A stretch of DNA of 39,398 nt from Thraustochytrium aureum (taxonomy: Eukaryota): positions 72,603 through 112,000 of the forward strand of contig BLSG01000427.1 in the NCBI GenBank assembly GCA_012862495.1. Reading direction: 5' to 3'. Below, piece by piece: positions 1-39,398 of the stretch (the stretch's first letter is position 1; every line of letters begins with the position of its first letter). The notes under the pieces are model-generated. The model was not told where the DNA came from. It did no database searches and was given only the letters and a program-made list of their open reading frames with translations. Made by a program: the position numbers and the translations under genes.

Positions 1-3000
1 GGAGCGCCGCGTCCGCCCAGACTTCATACGTATCGCTGGCGTCACCCGACCCGGGTCTCGGTCGCGATCTCCTCGCGGAAGGATTGAGGATCCCGAAAGC
101 ACGACCGAGACTGAGGCATTTGTAGTTGGCCAGCAGGTTGAAGCTCGCTTCAAAGGCGGCGCCAAGTGGTTCAAGGGCCAGATCTCTCGAGCTAACCCAG
201 ACGGAACGTTTGCGATCGACTATGACGATGGCGACTCCGAGCGCCGAGTTCGTGTAGAGCACATACGTGGCAGAGGGTCAAAGGAACGCGCTCGCCCTCC
301 CGTTGGCATGTCAGATCGAGCACGCTACCTCTTCGAGAAAGAAGACGAAGTAACGCTCAGTACTGTCCCAATGCTGCTGAGGCGCCTGACAGGATCTGCA
401 GTTTCCAGTTCCGAAAGGCAGCGAATTCGTGACTTCGCCCGTAAGGAACGAATCCGGGCGTCCGATGCGTTCAGCGCGAGTCAGTTCTCCGCTTTGTGTA
501 ACGAGCTTGGCGTCGGCGGCACTGGCGCTGGTGAAGGTGGTTCAGTAAGTAAGGCGTCGGCATCGCCGACAGTGGGTGATCGGGTGACTGCGAATTTTCG
601 TGCAAGTGGCAAGTTCTACCCGGGTAAGATCTCCGCAGTTAACCGCAACGGCACGTTCGACGTTGAGTTTGACGACGGAGACTTTGAATCCGGTCTGGCG
701 CCGGACGACATCAAGCTCACTGGCCTCGGAACCTCGAAAACAGCATCCAAACGGGGATCTCGCTCGCGCTCGCCACGTCGCAGTTTTGAGATGGACTCAG
801 AGTTGCAGGTTGCTGCAGGATTTGCGCGGGGGGATCGAGTCGAAGCGCGCTACAAAGGCGGCAACAAATGGTACAAGGGAAGAGTCTCGCGAGTCAACGC
901 CGACGAAACCTACGCGGTGGACTATGATGACGGTGACACTGAGCGCACCGTTCGAAGCTCACATATCCGCGCGCTTGGCAGCGCTCTCGCGAACAGGTCG
1001 GGCTCCTTCCGCGTCGGTGATCGTGTTAAAGCGCCTTTCGAAGGCTCTGCAGCACTTTTCCCAGGTACTGTGACCCGTGTTGGCAAGCACGGCGAGTGTG
1101 ACATCGAATTCGACGACGGCGACAGGGGTGCTCGGATTGAGCCTTCGTTTATTCAACCACTGGGCACTGCTCGGGGATCTCCCACTTTGCGCATGCGCTC
1201 AAGATCGCAGCCCGGTGGCCGGGGCATGGAGGATCTTCTCGCCGGCTTTGAAAGGGAGGGTACTGTGACGCCTGCGAACGTTTCAGAAGTGATTCGAAAG
1301 CTCACAGGGACGGCTCTGGACTCAGAGCAGCGAAAGCAAGCTCACTATTTCTGCAAGGAGGAGAGGCTCGGCGCAAGGGACGCGATGTCGTTCGAAACGT
1401 TCCAGCGACTGTGTGCTCGCCTCGGTGTCTCGAGCGCACAGGAGGCTGGCGACGCAGACGATGAACCAGATTCGGGTGCGAATGGGGCTCGGCAAGCGCG
1501 CAGCCGCGCATCTCGCGGACTCGAAACTTCTCGTCGCGCGCGGAAAGGAAGGTCAAGCACGCGTGAAGGGGGGCAAGAGCCAGGATTTTCGGTGGGAGAC
1601 CGCGTCGAGGGCTTGTTCGCCAACGGAACGGCTTGGTTCCCGGGGGCCGTGGCTCGTGTGCATCAAGACGGGACGGTCGACGTTGACTACGACGACGGTG
1701 ACAAGGAGCAAAGAAAGCCGGCACGGTCTGTGCGTAGTTTGGCACAGGCGCCTTCCAGGGCTTCCCGGCGGTCACGGTCGCCACGCGCTGCTCGCTCCCC
1801 ACCCCGCAGAGGCAGCAGGAGCAACATCGAGAAGGTATGGGGCAAAATGCGCCGTATCGCTCTCACTGAAGCCAGTGACGGTTTTCGGCCTCCATCGCTA
1901 AGGGAGATTGCGAAAGAGGAAGACCTCCGAATGCGTGTAAAGGCAGCCCTGGGGGCGCGACGCTTCCGGGAGCTTCGAGACGCGTTCAACAAGTACGACC
2001 GAAATGGCGACGGATTCATCAGCGAGGCCGAAGTCTCTCGCACATTTCGTGACATGGGCAAGCCTTTTGCGCGTCGAGACATTCAACGCTGGATGGATGA
2101 GCTTGATACGAACCAAGATGGCAAGGTCGACTTTGTGGAGTTTGTCAAAGCATACGCCGAACTTTCTATTTCCGACGGCGAGAGCGAGGATGACAGCAGC
2201 GAGGTTCCCACGACCGCTCCAGGTCCCGTTCCCAGCGACGCGGTAGGCGTACACGAAGGCGGCGAGGAAGCAGGCGCCGCGGAGGTTTGAGTGGCTCTGA
2301 ATCAAGTGTTTCTTCGGCGAGCGGATACAGTACAGGGTCGAGCGGAAGCGAAGCAGATGATGATGCTGCGGCCTCGGCGCCATGGCGCAAGGAAGCTTGG
2401 GCTGTGGCCCTGGGAAAGGGCACGCAAGAAAAGCTAGAGGATGCTTTCTTTGACTACTGCATCAAGACGCGCCGAGGCAGGCGCCGCGTGCTTCCTGTTA
2501 AAACTTTGCGGTTGGCGCTTGGCGCCGCAGGGAAAACCGCGTCAGTGAACCAGGTGGGCGAGTACATGCGGGTCATGGGCCTGAAAAAGGGCGATGCGCT
2601 GTCGCTCGGGGAGCTTGCGCATGCCTACTCGTACATGTTTGCAGACCCAGAGCGCGACGAGTTCGGCCGAGTCGGGTCGTACCACGACAAACTGTGGGGC
2701 AAGGGAGTGTCCGGCCGCGATCCGTCAACAACTCTCGGGCTACGTTCTACGCACGGGGACGCCGAGACCATTGCAGCGCTAGCCGCACAAGTCTACAGAA
2801 GTGGGGAGTGGACTGGCTCGCGCCGGGAGCACGAGGCGCTGTTGCGCAAGCTTGCACTCGGAAGAGCCGCAGAGCAGGTTGAGGCATTGAAGCTTTGCGT
2901 CAGAGCCTTTGAGGAACTCGACACGGAGGAAGATGGCGAGATCCCCGCTGCCTCCGTCACTGATTTGATTCGGAGCTGCGGCAGGGACCCTGAACCGCTC

Positions 3001-6000
3001 AAAGCGACGCTCGAAGACTTTTGCAAGGTGCGTGCAAAAGCTTCCCTGCCGGAGATCTTGGCTTGCTTTGGCTTTGTTTTCGAGAGCTTGGGTGCCGCGC
3101 CGACCGTGGCGAGCGCTTTCGCGATGCTTCGCCTGCACGTAGCGCCAAGAGACGCGCGGGTTGCCGCGGAGACCGTGCTGCACTACATCAACAACGTGAT
3201 TGCCCGACCTGACGATTCGAGGCTCTGGCAGGTTTCCGTCCGGGACGACGTGTTTCGAGCTAAAGTCGGACAGCACCGGGGCGGCATTGAGCTCATGCAC
3301 GCTGTCGGCTTTGAGCCAAGTCGGCGCCCGAGCCGCGAGACGCTGCGAGACCTCGTGACAGGCGCTCCAGCGGCTGGAAACCGAGCCGAATTCGTCCAAA
3401 TGCTGGCATTAAAAGGAACGCTGGACAAACACGGCCGAAGTATGGTCCAGGGTGTTCCGAACGACACAATTGCCACGCTCGCGGTTCGACGCGAGGAGGT
3501 CGAGCAAGAGCTCCGCGTCCTGGACGGCGGCGTTGTAACCGTTGGTGAAGCGGTGCGCCTCTTGCAGGCAGAGTGCACGCTCGCGGAACTTCGCAGCGCC
3601 GTGGAAACGGTCCATGCAATGGTGGCGCGCGTCTTGGGCAACCCGAAAGACAGCCGGCTGTGGCGCATCCGCGCCGCAAACTCGTCGTACCTGCGCAAAG
3701 TTGGGCAATGGAAGGGGGGCGCAGTGCTTATGGAAGCCGTTGGTTTTGAGCTCCGCCGCGACGCCAACCTCTTCGTACTGCGAGGAACCGAAGACGCTGT
3801 TTCCTCTCAGGCTACGTTCAAGTTCCCAACGCTGTCTGCCGAGACCGAACAGGTGCTGTGGCGCAGGAAGGCCGACCTTGAGGCCGCCCTTCGGGCCTTA
3901 GAAGTCTCAATCGTTACCGGGAGGCCGTCCGCCGTCTCGGACGGGCGTGGTATTGCGCCACGAGCACGACAAGGGAAGCGAGGCTCTGGCAAAGTCTCAG
4001 GAAGCGAGCAATCAGTGCCGCGCCAGGGCGCCTTGCAGCCCCATGCCCAGGCAGGCTCAAGCCGAGCTACACGCGAGCATCAGATGCACAAGTCCCTTGA
4101 GACTCTTTTGGCAGGCAAGTCAGCAACCGAGCAGCTGCAGCTGGAAATGATCCACCAGGCCTTCAACGATCTTGACAAGAATGGAGACGGCTGGATCACA
4201 GCAGCTGACCTCAAGCAAGCGTTCGGCGAGCGCGGCCGAGACTCTAGCGACCGCGCCGTCGAGACGTGGATCAAAGAGCACGACATCGACCAGGACGGGG
4301 TCGTGTCGCTTGCGGAATTCGCTGCATCGTTTGCGCATCTCATGCCGGCAGCGAGCGCAGCCCAAGCGCGTGGGGCTGAGGCAATCGTGGCGCATGGCGT
4401 TTCGGCGCAAGTCCCTTCTGTTGTCTCGAGCCTCTCGTCAAGCCTGGTGCGAGAGCGCACAAGTGCAGTAGCTCGAGCGTTTGGCTTGCTCAAACTTTTC
4501 AACCCGATCGCCCGCGTTGCGTCGGTATGTGCCGCGGTGCGGTCGCTCGTGGATAAGGGACTCTCTGCGCCAGCCTCGGCAGTTGAGTCCGCGGGTCCCA
4601 GTGCTGCTGCCCCTGCCAAGACGTTAAGTGCGCAGGATGCCGGCCGGCTTTTCGGGGGTTGCAAAGGGGCTGTCGAGCTTATGCTCGCCCTGGGATGGAA
4701 GCACGACGCAACTAGAGGCTCGTTCCAATTGGAACGTACGACGACGAAGGGGGAGAGCAAGCTTCGCGACATGGCACGCGAGCTCGGCGTGCACCAGCGT
4801 GGTTTGGATTATGCCGGGATCGCGGACGCCAGGGCTGTGGCTGGAGCCCTTCTGTGCTTAGGGGACTCACCGAGTACGAGTGAGAATCGTCCCGAGTCGT
4901 GGCTTGGCGCGCTGGAGACATTTGTGCGCTACCTGGAAAACATTGTTCGGAGCCCTCAAGCTGTGCAGTACCGGGTGATAAACATCCAGAACGACAACTT
5001 TCGTCGCCGCATTGGTCGCCTACATGGCGGAATCGAGATGTTTCTTGCCGTAGGATTTGCTGAGACGGAAGACGCCCTACTCAAGCTACCAGACCGCTGC
5101 GACATGCGCCTCATCAAAGCCCGGCTGCTGGAAATCCAGGCCGGTCTCCCAACGCTGCGCGCGCGGGCGAAGGAATCGCAAGCGCTCGTGCCTGCTCGCG
5201 CTNNNGCGCAAACCGTGCTCCAGGGCGTGTCAGGCAAACCGGCTGCTGACGCAGCCGTCCGTGGCGGAGCGAGGTCCCAGCCTTTGCAAGGCACAGAGAC
5301 AGGCGGCCAGGTCAATTTGGATGCGTCATTTGCGACTCGCAGAATTGAATCGCTCCGCATCCGCGAGCTGGAGGCGCAAGTGCACATCCTCAAGGACAAA
5401 CTCGACAAGCGCGGCGCCGCCAAGGGGCGCCAAGGCGCAAGCTCGACCGCGCTGCCACTGACGAAAGCTGCGTTGGAGACCGCGGCGCTGCTGCGGGACG
5501 ACGGCTATGTAGATGATTTGCTTCGTCTTGGGGCAACCATGCCGCGTGGCACGGTGACGAAGGGAGGGAGCGGAACTGGCGGCGCGCCGTACACACGTGG
5601 TGCAGGCTTGGGGGCAAAAGGAGGAGGTGGTGGTGTTGGGATGTCCATGTCCACCGTCGTGGCGTACCAGACGCTGCGAGGGGCTACGACGCTTCCTGTC
5701 GTGTCGCACCAAGGGTTTAGCTACGGCGGAATGGTCCTTGTGGGCAATCCGGGGCGAAATCAGGAAACACGGTTCGTTGTGGGGTTCACCGAGTCGAGCC
5801 TCGCGCTAGATTTTGGGCTTCACTACGACCACAGCGAGGGCGAGGAGGTTTTTGTCGCCAAGCCGACTCGTGCCGAGCTCGCCAAATTCCGCAAGCGGGA
5901 GGTAGTCACCTTTGTTCAGCAGGACGTGCTTTATCCTCTTGTTGCGCAAGCCGCGGCGCGCGGTCAAGAGGCCGAGGCCGCGCGCAGGGCGCAGACGCAG

Positions 6001-9000
6001 TTCCAGCAGCGACCGCTTCCAAAGCCTGTCTTCACCGCAGAGCCTATCCTCGACTTCGGGCTGGAGAGCGCCGCGTCAACATGTGTCCCTTCAGCTCCAG
6101 GGTTGACGCAACGCCAGATCCTCGCTGGGTTTTCGTCGCTGGGCCGGATACATGTCGCCGGAAGGCTGGACACAATCCTCACGCTTGAGGAAACCATGCC
6201 GATCGAGGAGCTCCGCGAGCTCTTCGAGATGATCGACGCAAACGGCAACGGCGTCGTCAGCAAGGCGGAGATAGTGGCGGCGGCACGCAGCGAGCCTCGA
6301 GTCGCTGCTCTGTTGTCCAGCGGCACGCGCTTTGACAACGCCTTGCGGGACTCTGAGCAGGTCGGCTTTGGGAAAGCGTTTCGCGCAATGACGAACGACC
6401 ACCGCGAAGAGCTCTCTTGGGCAGACTTTGTGAGCTACTTTTGCCCTTCGGCGCAAGCCGCGAATGCAGAACGATCTGCAGCGACTTGGTGGGAGCATCA
6501 GGCCAAGTGGCGCGCAATGCCTTGGGCAACGCAACTCCAAGACGGCGACCTCCGCGAGCTGCATGTCGCCTTTTCGCTTTTTGACACTGACGGCGACGGC
6601 CAAATCACAACGAAGGAGTGGGGCGCGGCTTGCCAGCTCCTCGACGGGCTTGTCTCCGCTGAGGAACGCACCTTTGCTGAGCGCAGACTGCAGAAGAAGT
6701 CGCTCAACTTTGGCGAGTTTTGCCAGATGCGTGTGGCTCTTGCCCGCAAGAGGCCCTTCCGTTTTCAGGCCCCTTCCGCCTCTCCTTTGGCGCGTGGTGC
6801 AGGTGTGCTTGACGTTGTGCGCACCGAGCTGCGACGCGTATTTTGCTCTGCACGAAGGCCTCAGGGCACTGCGGGCAGCGTTTCACGAGCTATACTGGCG
6901 CGAATGCTTTTCCAAGACGCCAGCCTGGCGTCTCTGATGCAGATCGAAATGCCGGGTCGTGCGGGCGCAACCGCAAATGTGTCGCTTGAGCAGCGTCTTC
7001 GTGCTTTTGCCGCTGATGCTACGAAAGAGGCGGTGTTCTGGCCCGATCTTGCGGCCTGCCTCGGGGCGCGTTTCGGCGACGAGCGCCAGCTGCGCCTCTT
7101 TCCGGCTCTCCAGGGCGTTGATGGTGTCGCTCGCAGGCATGTCCAGCCGGAAGGCGGTGCAGGACTCGGTCCGGCTCGCCAAGACAAGGTGTACGAGCTC
7201 GTCGCGGATCAGGTGCTGAACCGGCTTTTTGTACTCATGACGAGCGGCGAGATCCAGGTTTGGACCGCCGAGGTGGACGAGCTCCTCATGTCTGCGCCAG
7301 TGCTGGACAAATCGGGGCCAGCCCGGGCGTACCTCATGTCCGGGAGGAGCTCAAGGCTCAATGCTCTCGCACGACGCGGACTCGGGGCTTCTGTTAGTCA
7401 GCACTGCAGCGGTGGACAGACGCGTCTTGTTCCTGGACCCTGTTTCGCTTGCGCAGATGCGAAACGTGCGCCTCTCGGTTCGAGTAAACGAGCAAAGCGA
7501 GCGCGGCGCTGCCCGTAGCTCGAACAAGATTGCCCCACATGGATCGGTGACGTCGACTGCTTTCGCTGGTCGTTGGGACGTCATCGTTTGCGCTGTACAG
7601 GGGGGCGACCCGTTTGTTCAGATCTGTTGTGCACGTTACGGAACGACTTTGGCGGCGCTTCCTGGGCACGAGAGGGGCGGCGTTGCGCCAAGCCTCCTCT
7701 ACGTTGCCCAGGCGGCCTTCCTAGTCTCGGGGGGCGGCCACGGCTCCGTGCGATTCTGGGATCTTTCCGATCAACTAGCATGGCGTGTGAGCGACGCCGG
7801 CAAGCAAGGCGGCCCGCTGCAAGAGCTTTTCGAGCGAGTCCGTGACGTTTTGAAAGGCAAGGCGTGCTTGAGCGACGAATCACGCCAAGCCAAGGTCGTG
7901 GCTCGTGGAGAGAGTGGGCGCCTCACCGTTCGGTACACGGACGCAGCAGGCGGCATTGAGCACCAAGTGGATCCAGACCGTATCGGGCTGGGCGGCACCG
8001 GCCATGTGCTCTCGCTCGCGGCGGGCTCTAGTGTACGCGTCTTCGCCGTGCGCCAAGTTCGAGTCACAGTCTCGCAAGTACACAAGGCCGAATCATGCGC
8101 CGACGTCGTCGTCGACTCAACTGGCGAAGCATGGGCAAGAGTGGCCCCTCCTAGCGGTGTTGATCTTGACGCAGTGCATGAAGGCGACAAGTGGACCATC
8201 GACCAGCCGAGGGAGCACAGCTCCATTGAAGGCCTGTTCGAAGCCCTTGACGAGAACGGCGACGGTTTCGTCTCCTTGGCCGAGTTTAACCGGATGCTCC
8301 TCGACAAGCTGCGCGTACCGCTCCATCCGGGAGACGCTGAGCGCGTCTATCGTGTGTTTGATGGCAACGGCGATTCCCAGGTATCTCTGCGGGAGCTCTC
8401 GCGGGCGCTGCAGACGGGCAAAGGTCCTGGTAGCGTCACGAAGGCGCGCGTGCGACAGCTCGCTTGCCGAAAGTCGATCAAGCTGTCTGGCCACGGCGAG
8501 CGACGCGCGTGCGTCGCTGCCTTGGTCTACCTGCCTTCTGCTGGGCTCGTGTGCGCTGCTACTGCAGGAGGTTCCTTGCACTTTTTCGACCCAACAGCGA
8601 GGCCGCACCGCCTGACGCATCCCCAGTTTCTTTTGCAACACCCCGCTGTCAAGCCTGAGATCACAGAGTCCCAAGAGCCGTACCAGGAAGTACTACGTGC
8701 AGAGCTTGGGGGTGAGCTGCAACACCTTAGCGTGCAGCGGTTCGCCTTTGGCCACCACTCCCGCGATGCGAACGTGCGAGATCTGGTTGAGACCGCTCAG
8801 GCGGCGCGGACTGCGAGCCTTGCTGCTCGCGCAGAAGGAAGCCCAGGAGCGACGCAGGGGTTTGCTTATATTCTCGATGATGGTCAAGTGTTGTGCGTTC
8901 CCGTCGACGGTTTCGATACGAGGTACATTCGAGTGGACGATCGTGTGCTTTTCGGGACTGCGGGGGCGATGACAGAGGTGGGCGGCTGGGCCAGCGGTAG

Positions 9001-12000
9001 CGATGCACTTCGCCGGGTCTACCGCATTCGTGCGAACATCGCTCGGGTCGTCTACTTTGTGACCCGCCAGATGGGGAGTGTCGCGGACGTTGAAGCGCTA
9101 TTCCGCGATCGGCGGGCAGGCGAAATGGACCTTGTCTCGATGCGGCATGCACTCGAACGGCCGTTTGTTGAGGTTTTCCCTTTTTTCAGGGATGGCGACG
9201 GGCCAGAGCAGAGCCTTGGAAGTCTCGGCTCCTCCGTGCACGCTAGCGCGATGAGCTTTGCAGACCTACCTGGCACAGTTACGCGGAAGCTGCGGGATGG
9301 CTTCGTTGAGGTTGCCTATGATGCGACACAAACTCTCCTGAAGGTCCCACAGGCGTTCCTTCGGCGTCTGGATTTCGGCGAGCTCGACGAGCGAGGCGAG
9401 CCCGTTGCCCTGGTAGAGACCAGTGGCGACGTCCAGTGGCGGCAGCGCTCGGTTCGACCTGCCAGTGGGCGCCAAAGTCAGACTCCATCAGGGATATATT
9501 CCTGCAACGAGCTCGATCCCAGAGCTAAGCCACGCATCGAGTGAAGCGTCCAGGGGACTCGTGGCCAATCGGACTTGCGTTTGGCCTGGTGTGGCAGCGC
9601 GATGCTCCATGGCCGCACCTGGCGCAGGCGCCGCAGGAGCTTCTGCAGCTGCGGACGATGACGATACGAGCGAGGCCCTCGAAGTCCTCTTTGCGGTTTG
9701 CTCTGGCGATGCTGGGGAAGCCCGGATACGCGCATGGTCGGTCCAACGCACCTCTGTGCTTGTCCCTGCGCTCCAGTACGACGCCCCACTATCTCCGTCT
9801 GTACTGCGGAGCGCAGACTTTGCGCAGCGAGCCAACCTCGAGGTCGCTCTACAAGGCGTTCGAGCAGCAGCGGCTGGTTTGCTCGAGCAGCGGAGCACCA
9901 GCCGCAAGATCGAGTCGCAGCTGGTCGCAGAGCTTGGTTCGTTGCTTCGGGGTGTCTCGCTATGTGGAGCCGACCCTGGCGCTTCCGGGGGTCTCGAATC
10001 CCGGTCGCAGCTCGACCGCGCGTTTTCCATCGCTCAGCGACTCCCTTTCCGCTGGGGCTCGCGCTTCGAAGCCATGCTTGGCCGTTTTTCTGCGCTCTTT
10101 GACGCTGTGGCCATCGGGTCCCACGCTCAGATAGATGAGATCGTCCGTCAGCTCGAGACGGAGTTGGCGACCGGAGATAGCGTCTCCCGCCATGCTCTTG
10201 ACGTTGGAGTAGGCGAGACTGTTGCGCACTTCCGCCGGAGGCTGTCCGGCGTTGGGTCACGAGACGTCGTGACGCTCAACCAGCTTCTGGGCTGCGTGAC
10301 CGAGCTCCACCATGCAGCTCTCTCGCCGGAGGACATTTTCGAAGTTCTTCGCATTTCGAGGTTTATCCGCGGCCCAGACACAAGCGCTGCCCACGTTCGT
10401 GCAATATGCCAAGACCAATCGCAAGCTGTAGGATCAACCTTCGAGGTTGCTCAGGTCGGCGTGGATGCATTTGTGAGCCTCTCAAGCCGATTCGACCCGT
10501 TCTGGGCAGTTCGTGATGGGCTTTCCCAGCTCGCGCGGGCGTCGACCGGCCGCGAGCACGACCGAGACCGTGACGTAACCAGCGCTTCTATATACGCCCC
10601 CGGGGCTGTGCGGCCTCGAACGTCTTGCCCAACTGGCCGCCTCTGAAGAGTGCGGCGCAAAGTCGCGGCAATGTAAAGTCGAACTTGACGGTGTGGTGGC
10701 AGCTTTGCGGGCGAGCGCTCTTGCTTTGGTCACTGAAAGTGTAGATGCGGTCCTCTGGAAGCAGCGCGGTCGGGGCCGCAGCCAGGCGGGTTTTGGCGCC
10801 GAGCAGGCCGTGGCGAGTGAGGAGGATCCCCTGTCAATGGCGCTCACAGAAGATGACGTACTCTCAAGCTTGCGGGCCCAGGACCCAAGCTTGGAATGGC
10901 TACGCGATGCGGCTCGACCGCTCAAATATCGTGTGCATGGTTTTGCCCAGCTGGGTGCCCAGAGCAGCCCAGGTCGTCTTGTATTCCAAGGCAAGGGTTG
11001 GCACAGCGCGGATGCTCAAGGGCGTTCGATCCCGCTCACGATCCACTTGATCGAGCAAAGCAAGCTCGGCAGAGTGCAAGTTTCAGATGGAGAACCTTAC
11101 GAAGCGCACATTGAGCGCGAGCTGGCTATGTACAGGATCATTGAAGATGACCCCCTCCTCGGGCCGAGGCTGCTGGAGAATGTGCAGCGCGTCGAGAGCA
11201 CCGCCCTGGAAGACTTGGCGGCGGGAAGACATTCTCGTGCAGAGCGAGACGTAGTCGCCGTTGTTTTCGCTGGGCTCGAGGGTTGGCGGCCGCTTCGGGA
11301 CGTGTTCCTCGCGCACGGATTTCTTGGTGCCCCACACCGTATTCCCTTGTTGCGGCTCTGGGGCCTCCAGCTTCTCCACCAGCTTCGCCGCCTGCATGGC
11401 AAAGGCATTTTGCTTCGTGGGCCACGGCCAAGCCAGATCGTCGTCTCGCCATGTGGCCGCTTTGTTCGTATCGCGGGACTCTGGACTGCGGGGCTACTGG
11501 GCCTTGAGGGCGTCTCGGAGGGTAGGCTTGTCGTGGGCCCAGATCTGAGCGAGGTGACCAACGCTCACGAGCAAGGCTATCTAGCGCCTGAGGATGCGGG
11601 AGGTGCCTTGCGGGAGTTCGATACGTGGTGTTTCGGCGCTCTACTCTTGGAGGCAGTGACGGGGCAACCGCCCAAAGTAGTTGAGAGTNNNNNNNNNNNN
11701 NNNNNNNNNNNNNNNNNNNNNNNNNNNNNNNNNNNNNNNNNNNNNNNNNNNNNNNNNNNNNNNNNNNNNNNNNNNNNNNNNNNNNNNNNNNNNNNNNNNN
11801 NNNNNNNNNNNNNNNNNNNNNNNNNNNNNNNNNNNNNNNNNNNNNNNNNNNNNNNNNNNNNNNNNNNNNNNNNNNNNNNNNNNNNNNNNNNNNNNNNNNN
11901 NNNNNNNNNNNNNNNNNNNNNNNNNNNNNNNNNNNNNNNGTCTTGAGCGTGCGGTCGGCGGCTCAGCCGCTTGTATGCGTGGGGCCGCGCAGCGAGCTTC

Positions 12001-15000
12001 AGCTGGCGCGGTCCGGATTCAGGTCGGCGACACGTGATTCCGAGCCCATCGATGCAGCGGATGTTGAGTTGGCCGCCAGACTCGGGGCTCTCTGCGCCGC
12101 GGCAGAGGCCAAGTCCCTCTCTGGCGTTTTCGGGCTGTCCGCTGAGCAACGCCGTGACTGGGATGTGTTGGACGTTGCTGCGTTGTGCTTGCAGCAATCG
12201 CCAACAGCGCGGCCGCTGCCTTCGGACCTTCTCGAGCTCGATTTTTTCTCTCTGTCAAGCTCGGATCTCAATCGAGCGGAGGCTGCTGCTGTAGAGCTCA
12301 TGGGCGCAGCAACCGCCAGCATCAGCGTGCGCGAAAGTGTTTTAGCCCCGTTAGACCTGCTGCTGAGTCAGTCCGAGGCGGCCGGCTCGGAGATCTTCAT
12401 CGATGGCGCCTGCGACCCGCGCGTCTTGCTGGATGTAATCGAGAAGGTGGTTCAGTGCCTGTGCGACTCTCGCTTTTCCGAAGCCGGCGGCGAGGCGGCG
12501 GATGGAATTGAGCGCGACCAGACTGTTGCAATGCGCGGCTCCGCGGCCTCGATCTGCGATGAGGTCATACATGCAAACGCGCTCTCCCGGCTGGTCACAG
12601 TCACGTTGCGCTTCTATTCTAGCGAGTTGGGCCGAGCTCGCGGGCGCGGGATTCCTGGGACTGGGTTCGTTGAAGGAAGCGCAGAGGATAAGCTGAGCAC
12701 TCGTCTAGTCAAGCGGCTCGTTCAGGCGTTCAGGACTGGTGCGGCGATGTTTGCGAAGCGGGACGCGCCGCTTTGTCGCCATATTGCGCCGTTTATTGAG
12801 GCGCTTCTGTGCCTCTACTTTGGCAAAGAAGGCGATCTGGCTCAGCAAATCCATCCTGGGAAGGCCAGGTTTCCGCCCAGCAAGTGCGACCACTGGACGG
12901 CCGAGCTAGAGAGTCTCGTGGCGCCGGCCGTGCGACAAGTTCTGTCCGAGGAAGGCCAAGGGAACGCGCGCTACGCCGCTGTTCGAGAGCAACTCCGCGC
13001 TTGGAATCGATCCCTTGGCGCGGACGAGGCGAGCGTGGGCGGCATCGAGCCCTTTCGGCGATCTTCTACGTACTTTGCAGGACTCCTGCCGCTGGGAGCA
13101 TGCCTCTCGCAGCTGTGCTCCGTCGCACGGCAAGGGCGGACGCGGACTGTCGCGGCGCGTCAGGCGTTTGCCGCGCTGGCATCGGACGAGGTCGGGACGC
13201 TGCAACTCGTCGTTGATTTAGACGCTGCTCGTCGAGTAGCGCCGTTGGTTGCGGATGCTGACGAGCAGGTGTCTCGGTTGGCTTTTGGAGAGCGCCAAGG
13301 CGGTGCTTTGCGGCTTGCCAGGCGTAGCCAGCGGGGTCGTGCCTGACAGGCTTGGCAGGCTCCGTATGCAGATTGCCGAGGCCTTTGCGTCAGTGCCAGC
13401 TGTGACAGCTCTCGTCCAGCACATCCTCGGAGCGGATGCCGTTCGACGCGACCTCGCATTTGACACGCTCGAAGCAGCGGTTTCAGCGGGGCCCGCATTG
13501 ACCGCCGCGTGGGCTAGCGTCGACGTCGTGCCTGCGCTGCACAATCTTGTCAAGCGACGGCAGGAGCCTCGCGCGGTTCAACTGTGCCGGAAGGCTCTGG
13601 CTGGCGGGGACCGTGCGATTGTCTCTCTGATTGTGGCGCTCCCGGAACTTGCGGACGCCCTCGAGCTAGACCATGGCATTCGTGTCCCGGCGGAGGCTGA
13701 CCTCCATGGCTTTGGCGCTGTCGATTTTGAGTCTCTGGCTGCGGATGCCGCCGCAGCTGAGACGACATCAGAGGTGGAGGCAGTGCTTCCGCGGATTCGG
13801 CTTGCGCTCGCCTCGCAGGTTTGGAGTGAGCTCGGCGGAGACTCGTTCTCACAGCGCGCATATCTTGTCCAGGTGGTTCAGTGTGTTTGGGGCTGGTTTG
13901 GAAAGTTTTGGGAGGCTTGCAAGTATAGCGAAAGCCTCACGGAGAGGCGTTCTGGCGTCTTGCGAGATATCCTGGCGTTGTCGCGCGCAACATTGGCGGC
14001 TGTGCGATCGAGCAGCGCCCCAGAGCGAGCGGTAGCGATTCTGTCCGAGAGTGGCGCGTTCGAAGCGGTCGCCATCGTTGCTGGTGACACTCAAGTCGAC
14101 GTGCTTGGATGGTCGCGGCCACTTTTGGATTTGCAGAGCGACACTATGGTCCACCTCGCTGCCGAGTGGGCAACTTTCAGCGACGCGCGTGCTCATCTAG
14201 TCGGCGCAGCCAACGGCGAAGCCGACGTGGCCAAGAGCTTTGGCTTGTTTCTGACAAATACGGTAGACCTGGTGCGCGCATGTGTTTCCTCAGGGCATGA
14301 AAGACACCTCTCGCTTCTTGGGAGTTTGCCAGCCCGGAGCGATGCAACGCGAAAGACATGGAGTGCGCTCACAAAAATCGCAGACTCGGCTTTGCAGCAG
14401 CGAATCCTTGACGCAGGCGTGATCGAGCTCATGGTGCGCGAGATGCTTGGGGACGAGACGCTCGTGAAGGCAGAAAGTCATCATGTCAAGCTCAAGCAGG
14501 AGCTTGGAAAGCGGGATGGCACCGTCGTGCTTCGCGACGATGCGGTCGCAATGGTCGAAGCGCTGGCCGAGCGGCGGTCTATGGCCGAAGTCCTCGCGGC
14601 GGAGCTCGTTGCGCTTTGCCAGCGGACGTCGCTGGCGCTTGTGGAGCGGGACCGCATCTGGCGGTCGAAGCAGCGCCGTGACGTGCGCTCCGTCACCAAG
14701 TTGCTTCGCGCACTCGCCTCTCTATGCCATCCGCAGCTCGCGGAGGTGCTCGTCTACGACGCGCAGGTCCCACGCGCGATTGCGGATGGGGGTTCTGGCC
14801 TGGCGGATGAGGCAAAGACCGACGCCTGGCGAGAGTGGGAGGCGGCGGCGTCTGCGTGCAAGCGGGACGACACTAGGGGTCTTAGTCTCGCCTCTATTGA
14901 CCGCGAAGAGAACGTAGCGGTAGCGCGGAGCTCTCTGCGCGCAAGCGCCTCGCCTGGTCGTGCGAGCGGCCCGCCAGACAAGGAGGACAAGCACGGTGCA

Positions 15001-16317
15001 GCGAACAGGCCAAGACCGCAGAGCCCAGCAGCTCCGAGCAAGGCTGCTCGCAGCTCTCCCAAGCCTCCAAGGATGAGCCTGATTCGTCGGGGCGTCGCGC
15101 TGGTGTCGCTCGCTCTGGCCACGGCCCCGGGCAAAAGCCCGAAGAACCTGAGGGCATGATCGACAGGCTCGGCGACGATANNNNNNNNNNNNNNNNNNNN
15201 NNNNNNNNNNNNNNNNNNNNNNNNNNNNNNNNNNNNNNNNNNNNNNNNNNNNNNNNNNNNNNNNNNNNNNNNNNNNNNNNNNNNNGTCTCGCTGTCAGCA
15301 AGTGACCTTGAGGGGCAGTTTCAGGGCCGCTCGCGCCTGGGGTTTTCAGGGTTTTGTGCCTTGGTTGAGTCTCAAGTGCTGGCGCGCAGGGCAGCCGCGA
15401 GCGCGATCGCGGAGCGCAGCTTGCTCCTCGAGCGCTTGTTTCAGCGGTTTGACTCGGATAGCGATGGCCAGCTTAGTCTGCAAGAGACGCAGCTCGCGCT
15501 GGGGGCGGCAGCGGGCTGCCGGGCCATCATGCTGGACGAAATCCGTTCTTTGGCCCGCTCGTTGCGAGTGGGTCGTGCACAAAAGTTCAGCTTTGAGGAG
15601 TTTGCCAAACTCCACAGGCATTGGCGAAAGCGCTCCGTTGCTGGGCGCAGCCGTGACGAAAACGGGCGCGCTGTCGAAGAAGCTTTTCAAGAGCACAGCG
15701 GCGGCGGGTTCTTTTTGCACGGCGCAAAGCAAGTCCAAGCGTTCCTGGGGGACTGCCTTCGTGAAGCACGTGTGCCGGACGTGGAGCGAATCAAGAAGTG
15801 GATGGAGGCTACTGCTCCGCAACAACGCGGGATCGAGGTCGAGTTCGACCAGGCTGTCGAGCTGGTGGCGTGGGCTGAGGATGGGGCCTCTCTTGACTTT
15901 TCTACGCGCGCTGACGGGGTGTCTGCGCGCAGATCAGAGGCAGGCCAAGTTGCGACATCGGATCCTCTCTTGGAAAGTGCCGCGCGCGCAGGGCCTCTTC
16001 GCTCGCAGCCTCAGAGTCGAGGCGGCGTCGCCCTTGTTGACGTTGTTGACAGCGTGCCCCACGCTATTCGCGAGGCTCTTGGAAGCAAACTTGGGGGTCT
16101 CTGGAAGGCCTTTGTTCGGTATGGCGGCGACAGGGGCGTTGATGGTATTCGTTTCATCGAGCTTCGGACAGCATTCAACGAGATGGGCCGGGCTCAGGTT
16201 GCAGACGCCGACCTTTTGCGTTGGATCAGAGCTCGAGACTCGACGGGCACGGGCAGGGTATCCTTCGCTGACTTTTGTGCGTCCTACGCGCAGGCGGCAG
16301 AGTCGGGCTCAAGCTGA
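1..16317 (+). CDS. Giant multidomain scaffold protein (Tudor-like x>=5, EF-hands, PUB x3-4, WD40, pseudokinase, ARM/HEAT-like, C-terminal EF-hands); 5'-truncated, broken by frameshifts and two gaps
   Basis: The frame of ORF 308 is open from base 2 (ERRVRPDFIR...FVVGQQVEARFKGGAKWFKGQI...DYDDGD). Consecutive + ORFs 308-2290, 2287-7518, 7361-9544, 9423-10646, 10693-11946, 11943-13346, 13249-15159 and 15361-16317 overlap or abut. At each junction the downstream frame is open upstream of the break (about 2200, 7330, 9430, 10600 ccccc, 13283 tttt, 15062), or an N-gap lies there. Stop TGA at 16315-16317. Joining these into one gene is inference. Confidence 0.75.
119..1740 (+). repeat. Tandem Tudor/Agenet-like domain repeats in the giant gene (about 119-270, 569-720, 821-972, 1007-1160, 1586-1740, plus the tail of another at 2-34)
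   Basis: Recurring motif F-x-V-G-D-R-V-E-A-x-F/Y-x-G-x-x-x-W-F/Y-x-G-x-V-x-x-V-N-x-D-G-T-x-x-V-D-Y-D-D-G-D-x-E, separated by RS-rich linkers. Confidence 0.8.
3169..5058 (+). other. Three clear PUB (p97/VCP-binding) domains plus one degenerate copy in the giant gene
   Basis: ETVLHYINNVIARPDDSRLWQVSVRDDVFRAKVGQHRGGIELMHAVGF (3169-3312), ETVHAMVARVLGNPKDSRLWRIRAANSSYLRKVGQWKGGAVLMEAVGF (3604-3747) and ETFVRYLENIVRSPQAVQYRVINIQNDNFRRRIGRLHGGIEMFLAVGF (4915-5058) match the PUB consensus (L..Y..NI...P...KYR.I...N..F...V....GG.E.L...GF). A degenerate GCKGAVELMLALGW lies near 4660-4700. Confidence 0.8.
10920..12250 (+). other. Protein kinase-like (probably catalytically dead) domain in the giant gene
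   Basis: C-lobe motifs LHQLRRLHGKGILLRGPRPSQIVV, GYLAPE, DTWCFGALLLEAVTGQPP and CLQQSPTARP..LL...FF are present. HRD and DFG are absent. Confidence 0.7.
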
Positions 16318-19876: not shown

Positions 19877-21187
19877 TCAGCCGACCAACTGCTCAACCTT
19901 GCTGCGCAGTTCAGCGAGCGTCTCCTCGCACGGTCCGAGCACCGTGTGGGCATTGATTCGCGCGACATGATGCGCAGGGACGTTCTCAACAACGTTAAAG
20001 TTGTAAACTGTTGCTGAGGGGCTCTTGGCTGCGGCGCAACAGAATGCAATTTGCGTGATTTGGACAGCGAAGGATGTGCCAACAAAGACGATGACGTCCG
20101 CCTCTTCGAGCCACTTTTTCGCCTTGTCGAACTGGTACGAGTCGTGATCGGTGTAGTCTTCGTCGAACAAGAGACAGTTGGGCACCATTACCTCGCCGCA
20201 CCCAGGACACTTGGGAAGATCCGCAGTGGAGGGGAGGAAGGAGCGCCCGTCTTGGCGCTTACGAATCTTGTCATTCAGGGACGTGTAGTGCACCATGCGC
20301 TCGGAGAACTCGCAGTTGTCGCCGTAGCACTTGTACCCGCCAGAAAACCCGTGGACCTCGATCAGCTGCTCGTCCTGCACACGCCCGGAGCTGTGCCGAT
20401 GCAAGCGGTCTATATTCTGCGTCATCACAGTGGCCTGCGGAAATATGGCGCAAAGCGCGGCGATCGCGTCGTGGCCCGCGTTTGGTCGGTATCCTGCAGC
20501 TTTGGACTCGTCAAAGTGCTCAAGCCAAAACGTATTGTACCACTCAAGAGGGCATTCCTCAAACTTTTCGCGTGTGCCCCACGAGTGAACACTCTGCGCC
20601 CACACCGCGTCGTCTCGTCCTCGAAAGGGGGGGATTCCTGAAGCAACGCTGAGCCCCGCTCCGGTGAGAAACACGACTCGCTCGCCCTGCACGAGACTTG
20701 CGGCGAGCTCCTCTAGCGCTTGGTCCTTGGAAATCTGTGGCCTGTCTTTTTTCCCTCTGCGCGGCTGGCTCCGCCTCGTTGGCTCGCGACGCGCGGCGCG
20801 CTCTCGCGACCGTTTCCTGCTCCTTGTGACTTGGGTGCCCGAGGCCACCGCCCCTTCCTCTTGCATTGGTTTGCTTGCAGCGTCTTGCGCAGGCTCCGAG
20901 CCGCTCACATCGCAAGCAACGGCACCGCGCTCCTCGCTTTCAGCTGTGCGAGCGGCCTGGGCATCGCCTTTGGTGTTAGTGCCCAGCACCACATCATCAT
21001 TTTCATGACCCTTAGCCTCATCAACATCCTCACGGCCCTGTGCTTTGCCATCATCATCACGGCCTTGCGCCTCATCAACAACGTCTCCGCCCTGTGCTGT
21101 GCCATCATCATGACGGCCTTGCGCCTCACCAGCACCATTCCCGCCGTCCCGCAGCACATCACCCTGCTGTCCCCGCGCCTCCATCAT
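19877..21187 (-). CDS. NAD-dependent protein deacylase, sirtuin (Sir2) family
   Basis: Motifs FLTGAGLSVASGIPPFRG, TQNIDRLH, EVHG, Zn-binding CYGDNC and CPGC, LFDE, and VGTSF. Likely start MMEARG (cat at 21185-21187), with an acidic low-complexity N-terminus. Confidence 0.92.
   Translation of the reverse strand: MMEARGQQGDVLRDGGNGAGEAQGRHDDGTAQGGDVVDEAQGRDDDGKAQGREDVDEAKGHENDDVVLGTNTKGDAQAARTAESEERGAVACDVSGSEPAQDAASKPMQEEGAVASGTQVTRSRKRSRERAARREPTRRSQPRRGKKDRPQISKDQALEELAASLVQGERVVFLTGAGLSVASGIPPFRGRDDAVWAQSVHSWGTREKFEECPLEWYNTFWLEHFDESKAAGYRPNAGHDAIAALCAIFPQATVMTQNIDRLHRHSSGRVQDEQLIEVHGFSGGYKCYGDNCEFSERMVHYTSLNDKIRKRQDGRSFLPSTADLPKCPGCGEVMVPNCLLFDEDYTDHDSYQFDKAKKWLEEADVIVFVGTSFAVQITQIAFCCAAAKSPSATVYNFNVVENVPAHHVARINAHTVLGPCEETLAELRSKVEQLVG
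20993..21128 (-). repeat. About 54-bp imperfect coding tandem repeat in the sirtuin N-terminus
   Basis: EAQGRHDDGTAQGGDVVD / EAQGRDDDGKAQGREDVD / EAKGHENDD. Confidence 0.7.
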
Positions 21188-34355: not shown

Positions 34356-36289
34356 ATGGCGAAGGATGGCGCGGACGGCGCGGCAGGGATGGCGATGAGC
34401 GAGCTGGCCGGAAAGCGAAGGGCCAAACGCGGTCGTGGTGGGGATGGTCGCGCTGAACTGCTGCTTGCTGGTGTTTTCGCACCTCGGCACGAGCGGGGTC
34501 GTGGACTCGAACTTGAGCGAGCTTGGCGCGCACGGCGAGGGACGGCGCGCGCTCCAGAGCTTGCGCGACCAGTGCTTGAACGAAGCGGACGCTGCGCTCT
34601 TCCGCAAGCTCAAGCTCGACAGCATGGTGTCGATGCTGATGAACTGCAACCTCGGCGGAAACAAGCCGTGCTTTGCGGACGTGCCATGCGTGACGCAGTG
34701 CGTGTCTGGCGGGTCTGGGTTCACTTCGGCATGTTCCGTCTGCTTTGGCGAAGCGAGCGCCTGCACGCTTGACAAGTGCATCACGGACAACCCGGTCTGC
34801 ATGGACGCGAGCGACCCTGCATGCCATCAGTGTCTGCGCGACAAGTGCTCGCTCGGGTTTTTGCGCTGCACTGGGCTTGACCTCCCCCCGAGCTTTGGCG
34901 ACGAGGGCGACAGCCGCCCGGGCGGGAGCGCGCCGGGAGCCGACGCGGGGTTTGCAACGTGCAAGGCGCTTCGCCCGCTTTACAAGGTCCAGTTTGTGGA
35001 CGCGATTCGCAAGGCCTGGAATGGGGGCGCCCAGTGGCTCGCCGTCGTGCTGGGGGTCGCCTCGGGGGTGTGGCCGTACCTGAAAAACGCGCTCATCCTC
35101 GCCGTCTGGTTCCGGCCCATGAGCGTCGCGACGCGCGGCAGCCTGCTAGAGTGGCTGGGCAGGCTGGGCAAGTGGTCCTTCGTGGACGTGTTCATCATGG
35201 TGTTGCTGAACGCGACGCTGCGGATCGAAAAACAGCTGAGCGCAAAACTTGTGTTCCTCATCCTCGCCTACCCGCGGCCGGGCGTGTACTGCTTTTGCAT
35301 TGCCGCCACGCTCTCGCTTTTGCAGAGCGAATGGCTGAGGATCCAGAACACCGACTTTGCGGCGGTTATCGCGCAGCAGTCGCGACGCACTGCCCCCGCG
35401 CTCACTGACGGCCGCTTGCGTAGCAACTGGCGCCGCGCCCTTGCCGACAACATTGTGCACAGCCGCGTGCTGGACCGGCAGTCCTCGCTGACTCTTCGGC
35501 TCATGGTCCCGGGGTTTTGCCTCGTGCTGCTGATCGTGGGGTGCTACTTGGTCGACGCTGTGACGTTCGAGGTCGGGGGCACCGTGGCGCTCATGCCGGG
35601 CGCCAACCTGTACACTTACTCTGTGGACCAAGTGATGCGCTCGATACTCGGCGCGACTGTGTGCTCCAACGAAGCTGCGTCGGAGCCCGGCCGCGTCCTG
35701 CTCTTTTCCGTATTCTTCGTCACCGTACTCACAATGCCTGCGGTGGTGTGCATCTCCACGGCTCTCCTGTGGGTCGTGCGCACGCGAGCATCTCTGCTCG
35801 AGTCGCGGATGCTGCGACGCTGCCAGCCTGGCGCTGCGGCGCAGAATTCGATGGGCTACTACCCGGGGGAGCGGGAGCCGGCGGCTTGCCGCAACTGTAG
35901 ACCTTTGCAGCGCGTTTGCCTGTTTGGACGTGTTTGTGGTTTCGCTCGTCATTGTCGCCATGGAGGTCGGCAAGGTGGTGCGAGCGGTGGGGGCGTCGGC
36001 GCAGGTGAGCGGCGTCGACGTGGACATGACCGTGACTTTGCAGCCAGGCGCGTACATGCTTGTCCTTGCAGTGTTGTTGTTTTGGGTGATGCAGCTCTTG
36101 AGTTGGTATGGCGCAGACACGGAGAGATATCTGGGGAGCCGCGGTGTCTCCGTGGCCATGGCGGACCTCCCTCCCGGCCGGTCGCCGTTCGACCCAGAAT
36201 CTAGTTCAGACTCAAGCGAGCCGAACGGGCTGGATGAGGACATAGCTGTTGACGAGGAGCGCCTCGCGCTGTTTGCCTCCGTAGGCTAG
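34356..36289 (+). CDS. PqiA (paraquat-inducible protein A)-like multipass membrane protein with a Cys-rich luminal domain; frameshifts near 34425 and 35870
   Basis: PqiA-type motifs SGVWPYLK…LGRLGKWSFVDVFIMVL and, after a frameshift next to a ggggg run, LCSAFACLDVFVVSLV…LQPGAY. Multiple TM segments and a Cys-rich region at 34570-34870. Stop TAG at 36287-36289. Confidence 0.75.
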
Positions 36290-37271
36290 CTCGAGCCCAA
36301 GCCAGTGCGCTAGTTTACTAAAGTGCGTGGTATGATGCACGTTTTTTTATCAGCGAAGCGGGCTGCCGTCGGTGATAGTCGCCCAGATTCAGGCGTTCCT
36401 GGGTGGACCTGGAACAACCCCCCAAAAACAAACCCACCGCGCGTCCTCGGTTGTCACGGGCGGCCAATTTGANNNNNNNNNNNNNNNNNNNNNNNNNNNN
36501 NNNNNNNNNNNNNNNNNNNNNNNNNNNNNNNNNNNNNNNNNNNNNNNNNNNNNNNNNNNNNNNNNNNNNNNNNNNNNNNNNNNNNNNNNNNNNNNNNNNN
36601 NNNNNNNNNNNNNNNNNNNNNNNNNNNNNNNNNNNNNNNNNNNNNNNNNNNNNNNNNNNNNNNNNNNNNNNNNNNNNNNNNNNNNNNNNNNNNNNNNNNN
36701 NNNNNNNNNNNNNNNNNNNNNNNNNNNNNNNNNNNNNNNNNNNNNNNNNNNNNNNNNNNNNNNNNNNNNNNNNNNNNNNNNNNNNNNNNNNNNNNNNNNN
36801 NNNNNNNNNNNNNNNNNNNNNNNNNNNNNNNNNNNNNNNNNNNNNNNNNNNNNNNNNNNNNNNNNNNNNNNNNNNNNNNNNNNNNNNNNNNNNNNNNNNN
36901 NNNNNNNNNNNNNNNNNNNNNNNNNNNNNNNNNNNNNNNNNNNNNNNNNNNNNNNNNNNNNNNNNNNNNNNNNNNNNNNNNNNNNNNNNNNNNNNNNNNN
37001 NNNNNNNNNNNNNNNNNNNNNNNNNNNNNNNNNNNNNNNNNNNNNNNNNNNNNNNNNNNNNNNNNNNNNNNNNNNNNNNNNNNNNNNNNNNNNNNNNNNN
37101 NNNNNNNNNNNNNNNNNNNNNNNNNNNNNNNNNNNNNNNNNNNNNNNNNNNNNNNNNNNNNNNNNNNNNNNNNNNNNNNNNNNNNNNNNNNNNNNNNNNN
37201 NNNNNNNNNNNNNNNNNNNNNNNNNNNNNNNNNNNNNNNNNNNNNNNNNNNNNNNNNNNNNNNNNNNNNNN

Positions 37272-39398
37272 GGGCTCGTGCCTGCCGCGTGCCTGCCGCG
37301 TGCCTGCATGCATACAGACAGAGCCTGCTTTGACTGCGGCACCGCTCTGTGTTTCGCGGCGGTCGCTAACCAACTCGCGCGACCATAATCATCGAACGAC
37401 GACGCGACAACGACAACAACAACATCAACAGTCTCGGGGGCAACGGCATTGGCGATGCAGGGGCTGGCACGCTGGCAAAATCGCTCAAGACCAACACGAC
37501 GCTGTCTTCGTTGGGGTAAGTCGTGGCAAATTTGGCAGTGCGCTGGTGGCTGCACCGCTCGGCGTTTCTCGGTGGTGGCTGACCGACTCGCGGTGCGACC
37601 ATCTTCATCGTCGAACGACTACAACAACAACAACAGTCTTGGGGGCAACGGCATCGGCGATTTAGGAGCTGGCTCGCTGGCCAAGGCGCTTGAGACCAAC
37701 TCGTCGCTGACAAGGCTGGAGTAAGTAGTGGCAGAGATTGCAGAGCGATGGTGGCTGTCGAGTGCACTTCTGCGTCGTGACTGCGTGCATACGGGCTTTA
37801 TTCAGACAGAGCCTGCTTAGACTTCCGCACCGCTCTGTGTTTCGCGGCGGTCGCTAACCAACTCGCGCGACCATCATCATCGAACGACGACGATAACAAC
37901 AACAACAACACAACAACAGTTTTGGGGGCAACGGCCTCGGCGATGCAGGGGCTGGCATGCTGGCCAAGGCGCTCACGACCAACTCGACGCTGACTTCGCT
38001 CTAGTAAGTCGTGGCAGGGATGGCAGTGCGCTGGGTGGCTGTCGAGTGCGCTCGTGCCTGCCTCGTGGCTGCATGCATTCAGACAGGGCTTGCTTGCGCG
38101 AGCGCACCGCTCTGTGTTTATCGGTCATGGCTGACCAAATCGCACGACCATCGACGTCATCGTCGTTCGATGACAACAACAGTCTTGGGTGGAGCAGCAT
38201 CAACGATGTAGGGGCTGGCACACTGGCCAAGGCACTCGAGACCAACTCGACGCTGACTTCGCTCTAGTATGTCGTGGTAGGGATGGCAGTGCGCTGGTGA
38301 CTGTCGAGTGCGCTCGTGCCTGCCTCGTGGCTGCATGCATTCAGACAGGGCTTGCTTGCGCGAGCGCACCGCTCTGTGTTTCGCGGCCATGGCTGACCAA
38401 CTCGCACGACCATCGTCATCAAACGACGAACGACAACAGTCTCAACAACAACGGCATCGGCACTGCAGGCGCTGGCTCNNNNNNNNNNNNNNNNNNNNNN
38501 NNNNNNNNNNNNNNNNNNNNNNNNNNNNNNNNNNNNNNNNNNNNNNNNNNNNNNNNNNNNNNNNNNNNNNNNNNNNNNNNNNNNNNNNNNNNNNNNNNNN
38601 NNNNNNNNNNNNNNNNNNNNNNNNNNNNNNNNNNNNNNNNNNNNNNNNNNNNNNNNNNNNNNNNNNNNNNNNNNNNNNNNNNNNNNNNNNNNNNNNNNNN
38701 NNNNNNNNNNNNNNNNNNNNNNNNNNNNNNNNNNNNNNNNNNNNNNNNNNNNNNNNNNNNNNNNNNNNNNNNNNNNNNNNNNNNNNNNAGCTCAACGACA
38801 TCAGCGCTGACGGAGCTGGCGCGCTGACCAGGGCGCTCGAGACCAACTCGACGCTGACTTCGCTGGTGTAAGTCGTGGCAGGGATGGCAGTGCGCTGGTG
38901 GCTGTCGAGTGTGCTCGTGACTGCCTCGTGCATTCAGACAGAGCCTGCTTAGACTGCCGCACCGCTCTGTATTTCTCGGTGGTGGCTGACCAACTCGCGG
39001 CGCGACCGTCGTCATCATCGAACAACAACAACAACAACAACAACATCAGTCTTGGGGGTAACGGCATTGGCGATGCGGGGGCTGGCGCGCTGGCCAAGAC
39101 GCTCGAGACCACCTCGACGCTGACTTCGCTGGTGTAAGTCGTCTCAGGGATGGCAGTGCCCTGGTGGCTGCCGAGTGCGCTCGTGCCTGCCTCGTGCCTG
39201 CATTCATTCAAAAAGTCTGCTTGCGTCCGTGCTGTGTTTCTCGGCAGTGGCTGACCAACTCGCGCGACCATCGTCATCATCAAATGACACACACCAACAG
39301 GCTCAACAACAATGGCATCGAAGCTGCAGGGGCTGGCGCGCTGGCCAAGGCGCTCGAGACCAACTCGACGCTGACTAGGCTGGAGTAAGTTGCTGCAG
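37272..39398 (+). repeat. Tandem array of homologous intron+exon units (about 205-285 bp)
   Basis: Introns of 121, 199, 179, 173, 182 and 167 nt share GTAAGTCGTGGCAGGGATGGCAGTGCGCTGGTGGCTG…CACCGCTCTGTGTTTC…GCTRACCAACTCGCGCGACCATC…(CAA)n-CAG. Confidence 0.92.
37432..39384 (+). CDS. Leucine-rich repeat protein (RI/NLRC3-type, 28 aa) built from 84-nt exons; partial at both ends
   Basis: Exons 37432-37515, 37637-37720, 37920-38003, 38183-38266, 38440-(gap 38479), (gap)38789-38867, 39050-39133 and 39301-39384. Every visible boundary is CAG|…|GTAAGT or GTATGT. The spliced product reads LGGNGIGDAGAGTLAKSLKTNTTLSSLG-LGGNGIGDLGAGSLAKALETNSSLTRLD-FGGNGLGDAGAGMLAKALTTNSTLTSLY-LGWSSINDVGAGTLAKALETNSTLTSLY-LNNNGIGTAGAG…LNDISADGAGALTRALETNSTLTSLV-LGGNGIGDAGAGALAKTLETTSTLTSLV-LNNNGIEAAGAGALAKALETNSTLTRL. 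Confidence 0.9.

Follow-up and report, generated by a model that had tools for sequence, protein, structure and literature searches.

A one-repeat-per-exon leucine-rich repeat array in Thraustochytrium aureum, with signs of recombination among its units and membership in a putative large gene family

Tandem exons that each encode a single leucine-rich repeat (LRR) have been described in several eukaryotic lineages. In the ciliate Tetrahymena, LRR genes number in the thousands, and their 90-bp phase-2 exons have been scrambled by ectopic recombination (PMC6564038). Among brown algae, the ROCO genes of Ectocarpus are reported to carry 72-nt exons of one LRR each, subject to recombination (PMC3341825), with both intra- and intergenic recombination among type I LRR exons (PMC3341825, PMC11378527); in brown-algal ROCO genes, the LRR exons have phase 2 and undergo alternative splicing, and selection acts on their concave face (PMC11378527). 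A somatic-shuffling hypothesis has been put forward for Ectocarpus, its authors stating that direct immune evidence is lacking (PMC3341825). Among animals, a study of human NOD/NLRC genes reports that in most of them each exon encodes a single 28-residue LRR and has its border inside the beta strand (PMC6642158). The layout considered here is already known from brown algae and ciliates, and is not new.

Our window is a 39,398-nt stretch of a T. aureum contig, near the end of which lies a plus-strand array of at least eight LRR units. Six exons are complete and each is exactly 84 nt long (exon 1, 37432-37515; exon 2, 37637-37720; exon 3, 37920-38003; exon 4, 38183-38266; exon 7, 39050-39133; exon 8, 39301-39384), with CAG preceding and GTAAGT or GTATGT following. 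Two more are cut by an assembly gap at 38479-38788, leaving the first 39 nt of exon 5 (38440-38478) and the last 79 nt of exon 6 (38789-38867). All eight are free of stop codons, and the splice sites are intact wherever visible. Every array exon is phase 2-2 and encodes 27 residues plus one junction codon, giving a 28-residue repeat; the intron falls within the LxxLxLxxNxI strand, in the codon that separates the second L from the third. The initial annotation had proposed one 28-residue LRR per 84-nt exon in at least eight units, and this anatomy bears it out. The translated repeat is of the RI type and resembles NLRC3 (Pfam LRR_6). A profile built from seven exons returned 342 matches, to RI-type/NLRC3 LRR proteins including those of corals, Mortierellaceae fungi, and Capsaspora; in the best 120 of these 342, PF13516 is present and the repeats recur every 28 residues (667 spacings of 28). 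Sequence matches in the PDB, DRC5/TCTE1 and LRRC16A among them, are likewise LRR proteins of the RI type. Lone exons match Pfam LRR_6 weakly, at E 0.025-3.2, below the cut-off.

The introns that separate these exons are homologous to one another, as originally described. Six are complete and range from 121 to 199 nt: intron 1 (37516-37636), which is 121 nt long and in alignment is missing about 75 nt of the middle of the unit, and those preceding exons 3, 4, 5, 7, and 8 (199, 179, 173, 182, and 167 nt, respectively). Their pairwise identity is 79-94%, compared with 74-85% for the exons, with the introns ahead of exons 4 and 5 being 94% identical; all 15 pairs score above the best of 200 shuffles in a comparison from which the donor and the CAA-rich end had been removed. 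Common to them are a branch-like word, GCTRAC, and a 3' end rich in CAA; the corresponding acceptor pattern (CTRAC..CAACAG) occurs six times in the 1.8-kb array against twice in the other 34.7 kb, both times on the minus strand. We observe that the array acceptors (37366-37431 and those of the other introns) show no polypyrimidine tract, and have CAA/GAC-rich runs after the GCTRAC word. A partial homologous intron (37272-37431, 79-89% identical to the others) precedes exon 1 and lacks its 5' end, which implies at least one further (ninth) exon in the adjoining assembly gap (36473-37271; 799 N, an estimated size); this gap would contain the gene start as well. Because a donor follows exon 8 at 39385, the gene continues beyond the window. 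The expectation that the array extends both past the window end and into the gaps is thus upheld, with exons 5 and 6 running into the second gap.

It had also been claimed that any exon could be exchanged freely in frame. The frame is indeed always kept, and 47 of the 49 exon pairings remain open; the other two, exon 3 or 4 joined to exon 8, create a TAG, so that exchange is not entirely free. In each of the six introns, read-through would end at a stop no more than two codons in.

Compared with the described systems, the locus shares with Tetrahymena a unicellular host, exons of constant length in tandem, introns of phase 2 that leave a junction codon, scrambling by ectopic recombination, and what is probably a large young family (its size here deduced from sequencing depth); it differs in its 84-nt exon and 28-residue RI-type repeat, and no retrotransposon is seen beside the units (PMC6564038). 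With the LRR exons of type I in Ectocarpus and other brown algae, it has in common one LRR per phase-2 exon, recombination, and variation of the concave face (PMC3341825, PMC11378527). The Ectocarpus genes as described there differ in having 72-nt exons, 24-residue repeats ahead of ROC-COR, and inverted or dead intronic exons, none of which is seen here. The resemblance to human NOD/NLRC genes lies in one 28-residue RI-type LRR per exon, a border inside the beta strand, and a conserved frame (PMC6642158); unlike in those genes, the array introns are still homologous, so the copies must be young. NACHT and NB-ARC domains are absent from the readable sequence, and the space between the array and an upstream tail remnant (described below), a gap of an estimated 799 bases, would be tight for one. 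The locus works like known one-repeat-per-exon systems and cannot be filed as ROCO, NLR, or VLR. Literature listings, mostly of freely available papers, on 84-nt exons, choanoflagellate one-exon LRRs, labyrinthulomycete and thraustochytrid LRRs, and protist LRRs with a C-terminal F-box contain no paper on the family.

Four public sequencing runs were found, none of which is recorded as RNA; we treat one (X1) as DNA and another (X2), by guess, as RNA. X2 is RNA-like, with long near-identical contigs over the neighboring PqiA-domain gene. At intron 1, an X2 joint omits exactly 121 nt bounded by GT..AG, the shorter side being 20 letters long, and X2 joints leave exon 4 exactly at 38266. One X2 contig shows 13 differences to exon 1 (12 to exon 7) and runs on into exon 8, whose opening 27 nt it reproduces exactly; it has a depth of 14.9, against 12.8 for the neighboring gene, and fits exon 7 spliced to exon 8. 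Among the 18 listed X2 matches with letters, 15 run from exon to exon, and all 15 keep a period of 84 nt. The X1 matches listed contain none of these joints, and AACAG precedes their exons. Most X2 joints have sides shorter than 31 letters, possibly derived from paralogues, and most carry letters absent from the window, which points to sibling genes as their source. Taken together, the X2 joints confirm for the family the exon model that had been proposed, including splicing at the predicted junctions, and they give no evidence of exon skipping. The remaining three of the 18 listed matches are intron-containing contigs with depths of 177-201; those at 37288-37386 and 37676-37760 may be abundant intron-retaining transcripts, whose reading frame would close at the donor, or else DNA carried into the library. 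X2 has no cover inside intron 1 or at 36420-36473, an absence that by itself proves nothing.

The units of the array are mosaics. Nearest neighbors among them change along the length of the unit; for example, unit 5 is nearly identical to unit 4 over most of the intron, and groups with unit 8 from the 3' part of the intron into the start of the exon. In a PHI-type test of moderate strength (43 informative sites in seven units of this locus alone), neighboring sites conflict less than permuted ones at p 0.003-0.019 across four window sizes; with the sites thinned to 27, the p values are 0.007, 0.013, and 0.086, the last not significant. These results speak for the suggested shuffling of units by recombination or conversion over evolutionary time. 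Amino acid change is concentrated on the concave strand, the one divided by the intron, as would befit the variable binding face envisaged for this protein. Over eight exons compared in non-independent pairs, concave-face positions have pN 0.44 and pS 0.20, core positions pN 0.07 and pS 0.32, and other surface positions pN 0.25 and pS 0.14; concave variation exceeds that of other non-core positions (p 0.03), and overall pN = pS = 0.22. Hand translation of 15 X2 joints, which are biased towards mismatches, gives nine different residues at the junction position and ten and eight at the two positions before the Asn, with the flanking leucines constant.

In X1, the neighboring gene has a depth of 2.9, whereas intron bins reach about 300 and exon bins up to 1453. 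This excess of roughly 100 times or more, together with the many variants present, suggests a large family, where size is read from summed contig depth, a measure that does not give copy number and takes in other organisms as well. Since non-coding intron sequence at least 85% identical should come from the same or a very close species, we arrive at about a hundred or more units, a figure of low precision.

Family sequence is also found upstream of the first gap. The initial annotation placed the array from 37272 onwards; the exons do lie there, but family sequence begins further upstream, at 36326-36472. Its first part (36326-36411, plus strand) translates as a 5'-truncated, frameshifted remnant of a C-terminal tail, in the frames VRGMMHVF and then YQRSGLPSVIVAQIQAFLGGPG. 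This stretch is multi-copy in both X1 and X2. An X2 contig of depth 80 matches it but shows 10 differences, lacks one T at 36346, and runs to a stop; the X1 contig of the locus shares the extra T and has a 9-nt deletion, which identifies the window's copy as a real remnant. In X2, the tail follows LRR sequence (a joint from 37711 to 36351, and a loose end behind 37474). In a reading frame worked out by hand, the X2 loose ends run from a 14-codon half repeat into an in-frame motif starting EVMEHQV, then into the tail stretch, and reach a stop seven codons later. The tail of these sibling transcripts is about 45 residues long and contains LPSVIVAQIQAFL. The sibling transcripts accordingly have no large effector domain at their end, contrary to what had been anticipated. 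What is new is that transcripts of the family close with half a repeat and a short, unrecognized tail, rather than in ROC-COR, NACHT, or a kinase. The end of the present gene lies outside the window; its protein likely terminates in the same way, with half a repeat followed by a tail some 45 residues long, and the sibling ends argue against ROC-COR after the LRRs. Other family members could carry other domains.

Downstream of the tail remnant, a non-coding flank (36431-36472, plus strand) containing a CCAAT word is shared with a sibling gene, according to X1 joints. The X1 contig in question joins 37592 to 36351 and 36403 to 36431, both at depth 6.66; this linkage of intron, tail, and flank suggests that sibling genes are arranged head to tail, and the CCAAT-containing flank is possibly the start region of the next gene.

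Searches with the tail yielded no Pfam match at E 10 (queries of 22-45 residues), no homologue at E 10 among five candidates, and nothing usable in Atlas; it is present in none of the 120 LRR homologues fetched (the best 120 of 342). Three matches among cluster representatives were dismissed as unrelated repetitive proteins. The tail's LPxxIxxxIxxFL motif presumably resembles F-box or SOCS-type motifs, but for an F-box, SOCS-box, or PRANC ligase-binding motif the same 22-45-residue queries gave no Pfam match at E 10 and no homologue. Neither tail nor exon patterns have any match in viral contigs.

The locus is a spliced gene with one LRR per 84-nt exon, and we think it probable that it belongs to a large family of binding proteins, most of them LRR-only, which diversifies through gene conversion and unequal crossing-over, both inherited, among the duplicated units of exon plus intron. 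With a crossover inside an intron, a strand would take its first half from one unit and its second half from another, so that intron crossovers could create new concave surfaces and change the number of repeats with no shift of frame; selection would then be likely to favor change at concave surface residues. An ordinary LRR gene lengthened recently by tandem copying, with neutral conversion, weak constraint, and no recognition role, or a decaying family of which this copy may itself be decaying, is a considerably less probable account; in its favor are the equal overall pN and pS, the broken tail remnant directly upstream, and the separate appearance of the same layout, with another intron phase and position, in an unrelated soil eukaryote (L012). 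Yet purifying selection acts on the core, concave pN exceeds the overall pS about twofold, and the eight stop-free exons, intact visible splice sites, and spliced exon 7-8 contig are hard to square with decay.

Lampreys provide a different precedent: their VLR gene is incomplete in the germline and is filled from donor cassettes in somatic cells. Programmed or somatic assembly of this sort, with the present units acting as donors that are copied to a site of expression during the life of one cell lineage, would accommodate the uniform units with homologous flanks, the many family variants in the runs, and the stray gene piece upstream. We consider it very improbable, as all visible units stand in line on one strand with splice sites intact where visible and could be spliced in place, no inverted LRR copy occurs in 30000-39398 and no LRR copy at all in the first 36 kb, and neither an empty expression site nor a recombinase is seen among the neighbors; the VLR-like assembly raised in the initial annotation finds no backing here. 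Combinatorial splicing, also raised there, would generate many isoforms per gene through in-frame skipping of LRR exons; the open exon pairings would permit it, the X2 matches listed include joints between non-adjacent window exons, and precedent exists in work on brown-algal ROCO genes (PMC11378527) and human NLRP3 (PMC6642158). Nevertheless, nearly all of the non-adjacent joints include letters that none of the window's exons has, so that paralogues explain them equally well and we dismissed them as evidence of skipping; the sole contig attributable to the locus joins the adjacent exons 7 and 8, and contigs of this kind cannot show skipping. As the main source of diversity, exon skipping therefore seems improbable to us.

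By analogy, the likeliest job of the protein may be the recognition of fast-changing foreign proteins inside the cell. A bolder extension, which we regard as a long shot, is a protist intracellular immune repertoire of hundreds of LRR modules, recombined through strand-splitting introns at a rate high enough for clones to differ, with the LPxxIxxxIxxFL tail docking a ubiquitin ligase; were it true, bound virus or parasite proteins would be destroyed through that ligase. The common tail is the best handle on function. More broadly, the locus would represent another, probably independent, unicellular family of variable LRR proteins built from one-repeat exons, using the 28-residue repeat of animal NOD/NLRC proteins, and, with compact units of about 260 bases, it would be well suited to testing the Ectocarpus-based proposal of recombination within a lineage.

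In metagenome contigs, a pattern of exon plus donor had no match, and the exon-only pattern had 16, none with the array introns. Four of these 16 are the unrelated soil LRR array (L001, L002, L007, and L012), which is of RI type with 84-nt exons 71-95% alike and introns 84-100% alike; of the rest, one or two may be other LRRs and the remainder look like chance. On L012 (715-1866, minus strand) we observe nine RI-type LRR units with a 127-128-nt period, phase-1 exons, and homologous 43-44-nt GT-AG introns. The short introns, phase 1, and a border after LxLx make an independent origin likely, and such a separate origin would indicate that the layout arises easily.

Elsewhere in the window, 34399-36288 holds the gene of a membrane protein with a PqiA domain, frameshifted near 35.85-35.9 kb; the X1 and X2 contigs each differ there by one gap, so an indel error in the window is probable. 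A chain of overlapping plus-strand ORFs (2-16317) with Tudor/Agenet, EF-hand, PUB, and WD40 matches, and by eye a kinase-like stretch, may be a single giant gene that indels or short introns interrupt. A Sir2-family gene lies on the minus strand at 19880-21184, its best matches being marine protist transcripts (at most 64% identity) followed by eukaryotic and bacterial proteins at about 40%; its N-terminal part contains a 54-nt tandem repeat (21009-21161).
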